A stretch of 64,000 nucleotides of DNA from positions 7,139 through 71,138 of the forward strand of contig CAZOAG010000002.1 in assembly GCA_964577805.1 (NCBI GenBank), read 5' to 3'. The notes under the pieces were generated by a model. That model did no database searches. It was not told the DNA's origin and saw only the letters and a list, made by a program, of their open reading frames with translations. Origin of the DNA: an uncultured Opitutales bacterium. GTDB lineage: Bacteria; Verrucomicrobiota; Verrucomicrobiia; Opitutales; JAIRKQ01. Shown here piece after piece: positions 55,252-56,556 of the stretch. A program made the translations under genes and the position numbers. Positions within the stretch are counted from its first letter, which is position 1. Every line of letters begins with the position of its first letter.

Positions 55252-55516
55252 TTTTAAAATTTTCTATTCATAATTATTGATTACTGACCGACGGCCTGTG
55301 CAGTTTTTGTGCAGGTTGTTGTGATTTTACGATGAATACGATACCAATCGTTTTATTGATCCCGATACTAGACATATTAATTCTGAATAGTATTTCCAAA
55401 ATGCCATTATATTAGTACGTTAAATCGTTTTTAAATATACAGTTGTGCCATAAAAATTGTTGTAAAGTAATCAGGCGATTATAAATGCCTATTTAGGAGT
55501 TTCCGAAATCATTTTC

Positions 55517-55938
55517 CGGCGACCCTGAAAGTCCGCGGCGACCCTGAACTTGTCAGAAGACACGACACTGGTTGGTCACACGATGGTCTGATTGTGTCAA
55601 ATGTCTTGATTTCACATTTTCGAAGACTTTGTTGTGATAGAAGAGCTGATCTTATAGGCATTATACACGAAGACATTATTTCGCCTGAGAGAAGTACAGT
55701 TTGCCGGTGATTCACGTTTGCAGAGGGCTTTAATTTTCAGCCAAGATGAGATTGTTAGAAAATATGATGTCGCTTGGTTGTCTGATATCGTCGGAATGAT
55801 TTTATTGGTCGGAGTATTACAACCCACCAGGGTTTCTGACAGCATTGGAAATTCCAAATCGCCATAGGATTCCTATTGGCCGATTACTTGCGTCGCCGAC
55901 GATCTGACACTGGTTGGTAACATGAGGATCTGATTTTG
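55517..55938. repeat. direct repeats in the chaperone-pgi gap
   Basis: 13-nt cggcgaccctgaa twice (55517-55529, 55536-55548). 33-nt repeat gacactggttggt.ac..ga.g..tctgatt.tg at 55564-55596 and 55906-55938 (28/33 identical, 342 bp apart). Confidence 0.8.
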
Positions 55939-56040
55939 CAGGAGTATTCCAATTCACAGACAACTTCTATTCGCAGATAATAGCGGATGGTTAATTCTCG
56001 AAACCCGCCGCTCAGATGATATTATTTTTTTGTTTAAGTC

Positions 56041-56106
56041 GACCGAGACCGAGACCGAGACCGAGACCGAGACCGAGACCGAGACCGAGACCGAGACCGA
56101 GACCGA
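56041..56106. repeat. perfect hexanucleotide microsatellite (GACCGA)x11
   Basis: 66 nt of uninterrupted GACCGA units, read directly from the sequence. Confidence 0.98.
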
Positions 56107-56556
56107 ATCGACCGTCAAGACATTCTATGGTTTTCTACCTGTGCTTTAAATGTCTTTAGAAGTTTGTTTAGAGAACCTTTGAATAACCTTTGAAGTGTAT
56201 TTGCTGTTTCTTTCAACTTTCTTCAAAGTTCAGAATTACATCGAGTATTTTTAGGCCGCCATAAGATATTGCTTGGAGTTGTCATAGAGCTTCGTCATGG
56301 CTTTTTCGGCGCTATTTTGAACTTCCTTTATGGCTTGTTTACCGTGTTTTTTTTGGTTTTTTTAGCCTTTTCTTATAGTTTGTATCTAGGTCTTGATGAT
56401 TGCAAATACGATTTGCAGGCTATGTTTGTAATGATTCATTGGTCGTGTTGTGCTCAGACAATCATTATGGTACGATTTTTGATAAAAATCTAATGGCATA
56501 ATATGTATTCTACATTGCTCTTATGATGTTTTTTTACATATTGCTGTTGATAACAT

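Follow-up and report, generated by a model that had tools for sequence, protein, structure and literature searches.

The window analyzed here is a stretch of 64,000 nt from contig CAZOAG010000002.1 of an uncultured Opitutales bacterium. In it, a gene for a type III secretion chaperone and pgi, the gene for glucose-6-phosphate isomerase, are separated by a gap of 1.3 kb (55252–56556) that carries three classes of tandem repeats. The initial annotation took the upstream gene for a class I chaperone, which the match to the CesT family confirmed (Table 1), and noted the absence of an intact open reading frame (ORF) from the gap; indeed, the longest ORF there does not exceed 81 aa. It also offered two explanations, a former effector gene eroded and colonized by repeats, or an RNA-coding or regulatory locus. 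Comparison with related strains and lineages indicated instead that the gap is probably a lineage-specific, non-coding, neutrally evolving and hypervariable spacer. It is a gap of a known kind, neither shown to be an effector relic, nor kin to the repeats at 35 kb of the window, nor similar to an RNA gene.

Table 1 Features of the chaperone–pgi gap, its border genes and the comparison locus (positions in the window)
Feature	Position	Strand	Remarks
CesT-family type III secretion chaperone gene, 167 aa	54748–55251	+	Left border; Pfam PF05932, E 1.5e-15
AT-rich left flank of spacer, GC 0.292	55252–55470	.	L022/L023 lineage aligns over 55252–55385 at 85%
Terminator-like hairpin followed by T-run	55289–55321	+	Consensus scan
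GC-rich core, 567 nt, GC 0.423, non-coding today	55471–56037	+	Maybe a relic of + strand coding sequence
19-nt-period tandem repeat, 13-nt core CGGCGACCCTGAA, 2 copies	55517–55548	.	
One full 342-nt unit of large-unit tandem repeat	55564–55905	.	Orthologous unit in L024
First 33 nt of second large unit	55906–55938	.	28/33 identical to 55564–55596
Perfect hexanucleotide microsatellite (GACCGA)x11	56041–56106	.	
AT-rich, T-skewed right part of spacer, GC 0.334	56111–56556	+	Last 50–80 nt are the conserved pgi upstream region
pgi (glucose-6-phosphate isomerase)	56557–58125	+	Right border; Pfam PF00342, E 3.5e-65
tpiA–ftsK spacer, 1412 nt, GC 0.391, four degenerate tandem copies of ~338-nt unit	35026–36437	.	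Comparison locus

The GC content of the whole gap was 0.384, compared with 0.29–0.35 in most other gaps of the window and 0.366 in the window as a whole. The excess was limited to the core and the microsatellite (0.658), and both flanks resembled ordinary intergenic DNA; thus the description of the region as clearly richer in GC applies to its middle and not to its flanks. The compositional borders of the core were sharp, at ~55471 and ~56110.

All repeats listed in the initial annotation were recovered. The 13-nt sequence CGGCGACCCTGAA lies at 55517 and again at 55536, 19 nt further on, with two matches in the window against 0.26 expected; the two 33-nt copies, 342 nt apart and identical at 28 of 33 positions, found each other in a blastn search of the whole window at E 4.7e-4; and the GACCGA tract runs through its 11 units without imperfections. 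Further copies of the 19-nt repeat or of the 342-nt unit were absent from the 64-kb window, and neither the window nor the related loci examined contained a second copy of the spacer sequence.

The nature of the 33-nt pair became clear from a sister metagenome-assembled genome (MAG; GCA_964589405.1), whose contig CAZPRW010000016 (L024) has flanking genes ~90–95% identical to those of the window and 1186 nt of sequence upstream of pgi. Positions 103–585 of this contig align to 55564–56045 of the window at 83%, and its positions 1–135 are repeated at 344–479 with 126 of 135 positions identical (93%), so that the orthologous unit is 343 nt long; the contig ends inside the array. These tandem copies show that the two 33-nt repeats are the starts of successive 342/343-nt units, of which the window contains 1.1 copies and the sister MAG at least 1.4.

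The repeats also differed between strains and lineages, in unit composition or in copy number. At the position of the microsatellite the sister MAG carries (GACCGAC)n, with a 7-nt unit, broken by a scaffold gap of 100 N, and a further strain group has a mixed 6/7-nt array. In strain L002 the second 33-nt copy is identical to the first at 32 of 33 positions, which suggests that the copies were homogenized by conversion between them. Near-identical or identical contigs are present in many public runs, and many samples show assembly breaks at the 19-nt repeat and the microsatellite: 14 contigs from k=31 assemblies stop at 55517–55548, the 19-nt repeat itself, one (L004) extends into the start of a third 19-nt unit, and Logan contigs are interrupted within the microsatellite, ending at 56070 and beginning again at 56077. 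Judging from these breaks and from L004, the copy number of the 19-nt repeat appears to vary between strains. The locus thus combines head-to-tail units, variation of copy number or unit between strains or lineages, and a non-coding, unconstrained setting, which are the marks of a tandem-repeat spacer. The repeats explain the short-read assembly breaks at 55546 and 56070 as well as the scaffold gap in the sister MAG, and all three are candidate markers for strain typing.

Comparison with the sister MAG revealed substitution at a neutral rate with no codon phase. The large unit plus its tail (55564–56040) diverged by 16.6%, with substitutions spread over the three codon phases as 24/27/28, and the right part (56107–56556) showed 14.6% mismatches plus 21 gap positions, with a phase distribution of 17/27/20. 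In the same comparison, four-fold sites of pgi diverged by 20.9% and those of RNase G by 14.0%, and all sites of pgi gave a phase distribution of 20/18/86. The dN/dS of the spacer was ~1, and the indels separating the two lineages were 1 and 2 nt long. RNAalifold on three sequences returned a covariation term of +0.38 kcal/mol and only 2 compensatory pairs among 110, with many of the predicted pairs broken in the sister MAG. No Rfam family matched at the gathering score, and with the threshold relaxed to E<=5 nothing matched inside the spacer. Since the window and the sister MAG split, no constraint on the spacer, coding or structural, is therefore detectable. The last 50–80 nt before pgi are an exception and are still alignable in a more distant relative, L026 (56500–56542, at 84%). 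This short stretch most likely carries the pgi promoter or a leader/5' untranslated region.

The extent of the spacer differs between lineages. Two relatives from two samples (L021 and L026, at a distance of 0.13) keep the order RodA, RNase G, chaperone and pgi found in the window, yet their chaperone–pgi spacer measures only 388 nt, with a GC content of 0.286, and its similarity to the window is limited to ~30 nt at the left and ~45 nt at the right. The lineage of L022, L023 and L025, although farther from the window by pairwise distance than L026 (0.164 vs 0.132), shares the left flank up to ~55385–55407 at 83–85% identity. The presence of this flank in the farther lineage and its absence from L026 mean that the short spacer of L026 is at least partly derived; on these alignments the left flank is ancestral at least to ~55385–55407. 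A hairpin followed by a T-run occurs at the matching position 3' of the chaperone in L022 and in L021/L026, with a different sequence, and the hairpin in the left flank of the window is likely an intrinsic terminator of the chaperone gene.

Taken together, the gap would consist of five parts. Within the AT-rich left flank lies the putative terminator hairpin of the chaperone. It would be followed by the 567-nt GC-rich core, which appears to have no present coding or RNA function and is probably the last remnant of a once-coding or acquired sequence. Three independent, unstable tandem repeats would form the third part, with a 19-nt period, a 342/343-nt unit and a compound GACCGA/GACCGAC microsatellite, generated presumably by replication slippage and unequal recombination. 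The fourth and fifth parts would be the AT-rich right part and, at its end, the conserved 50–80 nt with the predicted pgi promoter or leader.

Such arrangements are familiar. Intergenic variable-number tandem repeat (VNTR) or minisatellite loci are known in host-associated bacteria, for example the Wolbachia typing loci VNTR-105 and VNTR-141. Like the present spacer, these have head-to-tail units of tens to hundreds of nucleotides in non-coding DNA between housekeeping genes, differ in copy number and unit composition between close strains, and have no known function. The spacer differs from them in that it holds three repeat classes (6/7, 19 and 342/343 nt) within 600 nt and the large unit in only 1.1 copies, and in that copy-number variation was observed between lineages, whereas between strains it is suggested by assembly breaks. 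Biologically the locus is of minor importance, a further example of unstable tandem repeats, perhaps with a gene relic, in uncultured low-GC Verrucomicrobiota.

Several observations weigh against a simple neutral spacer. The tests of rate and covariation rest on two or three independent sequences, and the + strand of 55490–56040 folds slightly better than shuffled sequences (z-score of the minimum free energy, -2.1). Between the window and strain L002, 55252–55618 differs by 0.5%, compared with 2.0% at four-fold sites, which could reflect mild constraint on that side. At least two lineages have kept the region, although bacteria usually delete junk DNA. Finally, no gene in the window reaches the GC content of the core (0.42), which is near the 0.42–0.445 of relatives with larger genomes; combined with a weak codon-usage signal (P ~0.008), this argues that the core is not simply old intergenic DNA.

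The codon-usage signal lies in frame +2 at 55630–55780, and the best 50-codon score (0.335, at ~55660–55810) was reached by 4 of 500 shuffles (P=0.008); it is accompanied by an open antisense frame whose phase matches the one at real genes here. In one long + frame the window has a 2-nt frameshift where the sister MAG is in frame, and the sister MAG has TGA where the window has GAA. Open stretches were of ordinary length in the window (P=0.36) and marginally unusual in the sister MAG (P ~0.02, a value that the repeat within its contig inflates). The best candidate frame (+2, 55658–55864) differed from the sister MAG by 4 synonymous and 24 non-synonymous codon changes, including the stop, with phases 13/13/12, and thus bore no trace of selection since the split. 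The core resembles pseudogene remnants in reducing genomes in its coding-like GC, its residual codon usage, its lineage-specific frameshift and stop, its neutral pattern of substitution and its loss from a related lineage; it differs from them in that no parent gene or homologue was found and the open-frame statistics are not significant in this genome.

The search for such a homologue was broad. Pfam searches with 10 spacer pieces found none, nor did searches of PDB sequences, NCBIfam and PHROGs, of a 5.8-billion-protein index with an 884-aa concatenate of six-frame pieces (among the best 8000 candidates), or with a three-sequence alignment of the reconstructed frames. The initial annotation had proposed translated and profile searches for an intact ortholog in relatives; no such ortholog was found. 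It had also held that conservation of the region as non-coding DNA in relatives, with no coding ortholog, would speak for a neutral spacer, and this is essentially what the sister lineage shows. A full HMMER scan with 55658–55864 against 1.84 billion representatives produced two matches, P0075 (E 5.5e-6) and P0076 (E 1.1e-4), both repeat proteins. The first was rejected, as its 42 bits were summed over seven near-identical repeats, pairwise BLASTP gave E 1.9, and the same artefact arose against unrelated Pfam families; the second was rejected with it as a repeat-sum artefact, pairwise BLASTP having been run for P0075 only. The sensitivity of these homology searches is limited for a decayed fragment of 70–140 aa. 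On balance, an ex-coding origin of the core is a serious possibility that we place somewhat below an even chance, and we rate an effector origin much lower.

On the latter reading, the core would be what is left of a type III effector gene cognate to the chaperone; this gene would have lost its function before the lineages of the window and the sister MAG separated, and later have been shortened and overrun by repeats. The position of the core downstream of a CesT chaperone, its coding-like GC and frame signal, the different lesions in the two lineages and the marginally unusual open stretches of the sister MAG are all compatible with such a history. Pairs of the CesT–Tir or SicP–SptP type likewise have a CesT-family chaperone gene immediately upstream; here, however, there is no effector ORF, the eroded sequence offers no definable start codon or N-terminus in which to look for a secretion signal or chaperone-binding domain, the chaperone has its own predicted terminator, and the orthologues in relatives neighbour an antiporter or pgi. 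The chaperone has 49 homologues at 56–95% identity, of which NCBI calls several 'type III secretion system chaperone [Puniceicoccales]'. Its relatives come from uncultured Opitutales/Puniceicoccales MAGs; the organism of the window itself belongs to an uncultured low-GC lineage of this group (Verrucomicrobiota). Orthologues of 58–80% identity are common in Puniceicoccales MAGs. On the long contigs of relatives (L012, L013 and L020) the chaperone stands between a radical-SAM gene, itself preceded by ATP synthase, and a Na+/H+ antiporter gene followed by RNR. One MAG has an ADH gene inserted between the chaperone and the antiporter, and none of these contigs showed an effector-like neighbour of the chaperone. 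The relatives with the order RNase G, chaperone and pgi have only their 388 nt at this place. Together with the lack of homologues, the ordinary open-frame lengths in the window and the lack of selection on the frame, this makes an effector relic unlikely. The idea of an eroded, repeat-colonized effector gene is thus compatible with the GC and codon usage of the 567-nt core, and its pairing with the chaperone found no support. The chaperone is a conserved stand-alone gene in Puniceicoccales, and a CesT chaperone upstream is by itself no ground for annotating an effector pseudogene. A decayed copy of another gene from the neighbourhoods of relatives was also ruled out, as tblastn with the antiporter, ADH, a 201-aa hypothetical protein, RNR, radical-SAM and SurA found no trace of them in the window.

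Foreign or mobile DNA of ~0.6–1.2 kb, inserted into an originally short and AT-rich spacer before the lineages of the window and the sister MAG separated, could account for a core richer in GC than every gene of the window, for its sharp borders and for the short AT-rich spacer of L026. A 28-nt imperfect inverted repeat, pairing 55401–55428 with 56472–56499, appeared at first sight to provide the ends of such an element. Its right arm, however, is ancestral pgi upstream sequence common to L026, and no target-site duplication was seen; the pair was therefore rejected as the ends of a miniature inverted-repeat transposable element or insertion sequence. Plasmid and phage collections contained no match, the spacer showed no transposase or integrase signature, and the lack of a second copy in the window or the related loci examined argues in the same direction. 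Moreover, the left flank shared with the farther L022/L025 lineage indicates that the short spacer of L026 is at least partly derived. We regard an inserted element as improbable.

A functional non-coding RNA or regulatory array, in which the 342-nt unit or the 19-nt repeats would be a small RNA gene, a pgi leader element or protein-binding iterons, is in our view quite improbable. The folding of the + strand, the spacing of the 19-nt direct repeats at about two helical turns, the conservation of 55252–55618 between strains, and promoter-like sites at 55953–55981 and 55998–56025 would fit it; but such sites were not commoner than in shuffled sequences (11 found vs 9.8 expected), Rfam and covariation were negative, the divergence equals the four-fold rate, and the region is absent from L021 and L026 despite the same flanking genes. 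Neither repeat has further copies in the 64-kb window. The suggestion of an RNA-coding or regulatory locus is thus contradicted by divergence at the neutral rate and by the lack of covariation. A contingency (phase-variation) locus, in which the length of the GACCGA tract would switch pgi or a small ORF, is scarcely credible: the tract is perfect over 11 units and its unit length and purity differ between strains, but it lies 450 nt upstream of the housekeeping gene pgi, not between promoter hexamers, and outside any conserved ORF, the 7-nt unit of the sister MAG is incompatible with a constant reading frame, and the frames on either side show no conservation.

Within the hypervariable spacer, divergence between close strains rises in a step. 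Compared with strain L002, for which four-fold sites differ by 2.0% and other intergenic DNA by 1.4%, the segment 55619–56038 differs by 6.9%, vs 0.5% to its left. Local hypermutation of this segment was rejected, because the step continues into pgi. Its rightward continuation follows from another strain group, in which the left side is ~98% identical to the window and pgi 93%, with the right part of the spacer at ~95%. The step would mark a recombination boundary, or the start of a right-hand region that evolves faster, and its position within the spacer would be fortuitous. In all lineages compared, ~55600–58200 (pgi and beyond) was 2–3 times more divergent than 51700–55550, and this excess may likewise reflect a recombination boundary or a regional difference in rate.

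The initial annotation had also assigned the repeats to a family seen at 35.1–36.3 kb, in the spacer between tpiA and ftsK. This kinship did not hold. Profile searches failed in both directions, from the 35-kb units to 55–56 kb at a threshold as lax as E<=100 and from the 342-nt unit to 35–36 kb at E<=50; blastn of the spacer against the whole window likewise gave no match at 35–36 kb, and tblastx only fragments of 9–22 aa at E>=0.06. In L037, a relative in which the genes are in the same order, the tpiA–ftsK spacer is 371 nt long and contains a single copy, which aligns to the last unit of the window at 66.6% over 314 nt; the 35-kb array is thus amplified native ftsK upstream sequence. A shared family was ruled out by the two profile searches and by this native origin. 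A contig of the sister MAG (L038) breaks 584 nt upstream of ftsK.

The two spacers are alike in being long, with coding-like GC, and in carrying tandem units of ~338 and 342/343 nt, and both are ~1 kb longer than in a collinear relative. The tandem expansion of tpiA–ftsK relative to the lineage of L021 and L026 is of the same kind and speaks for the spacer reading of the gap. They differ in sequence, with no detectable similarity, and in origin, the tpiA–ftsK array being a duplication of native ftsK upstream sequence in four old, degenerate copies; only the period is similar. Two spacers with periods of 338 and 342 nt are mildly odd, and with two cases the agreement may well be coincidence. 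A lineage-specific process or function favouring a period of ~340 nt, which could be a dedicated mechanism of recombination or replication restart or the binding of a host or nucleoid factor by the arrays, is very improbable.

Other observations concern the surroundings of the gap and its relatives. Just upstream of the chaperone, a micro-ORF at 54585–54623 (+) encodes MCDCGCGGGKKK; it is preceded at 4 nt by a perfect AGGAGG Shine–Dalgarno sequence and followed by a terminator-like hairpin (54645–54674). L011 and the lineage of L026, at 86% identity, encode the identical peptide, whereas L025 has the variant MCGCDCGCGGGKKK and L016, L018 and L019 have MCGNDGCGCGGKGKK. The micro-ORF is always found just upstream of the chaperone and looks like a conserved Cys/Gly-rich micropeptide gene. 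Three contigs of 8–10 kb with a GC content of ~0.26 (L017, L018 and L019; JGI Ga0310697, Ga0247611 and Ga0310694) carry a pseudogenized chaperone with in-frame stops (e.g. L018, 6538–7050) together with the micro-ORF. Almost no long ORFs appeared in them under code 11 or with TGA read through, and an alternative genetic code was rejected; the contigs could come from a heavily degraded relative, or be bacterial DNA lodged in an AT-rich host genome.

The spacer itself was ruled out as a replication origin, having no cluster of DnaA boxes and no skew switch. Elsewhere in the window, an AT-rich gap at 20321–20904 (GC 0.288) contains four DnaA-box-like 9-mers at 20429–20742 and lies near the minimum of the cumulative GC skew and a switch in gene orientation at ~17 kb, features that make it a candidate origin. 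Downstream of pgi, the nominally intergenic 58126–58912 exhibited a strong codon-usage signal, reached by none of 500 shuffles, and a 76-aa ORF (58216–58446) was called there in a Logan contig (L014); the stretch may hold a small gene missed in annotation or a pseudogene of recent origin. The genes at 58913–59707 (-) and 60095–60877 (-) are paralogous, with ~75% DNA identity to each other, and encode proteins of ~260 aa with signal peptides and no Pfam family on record; at 67–81% identity between lineages, they diverge much faster than the flanking genes.

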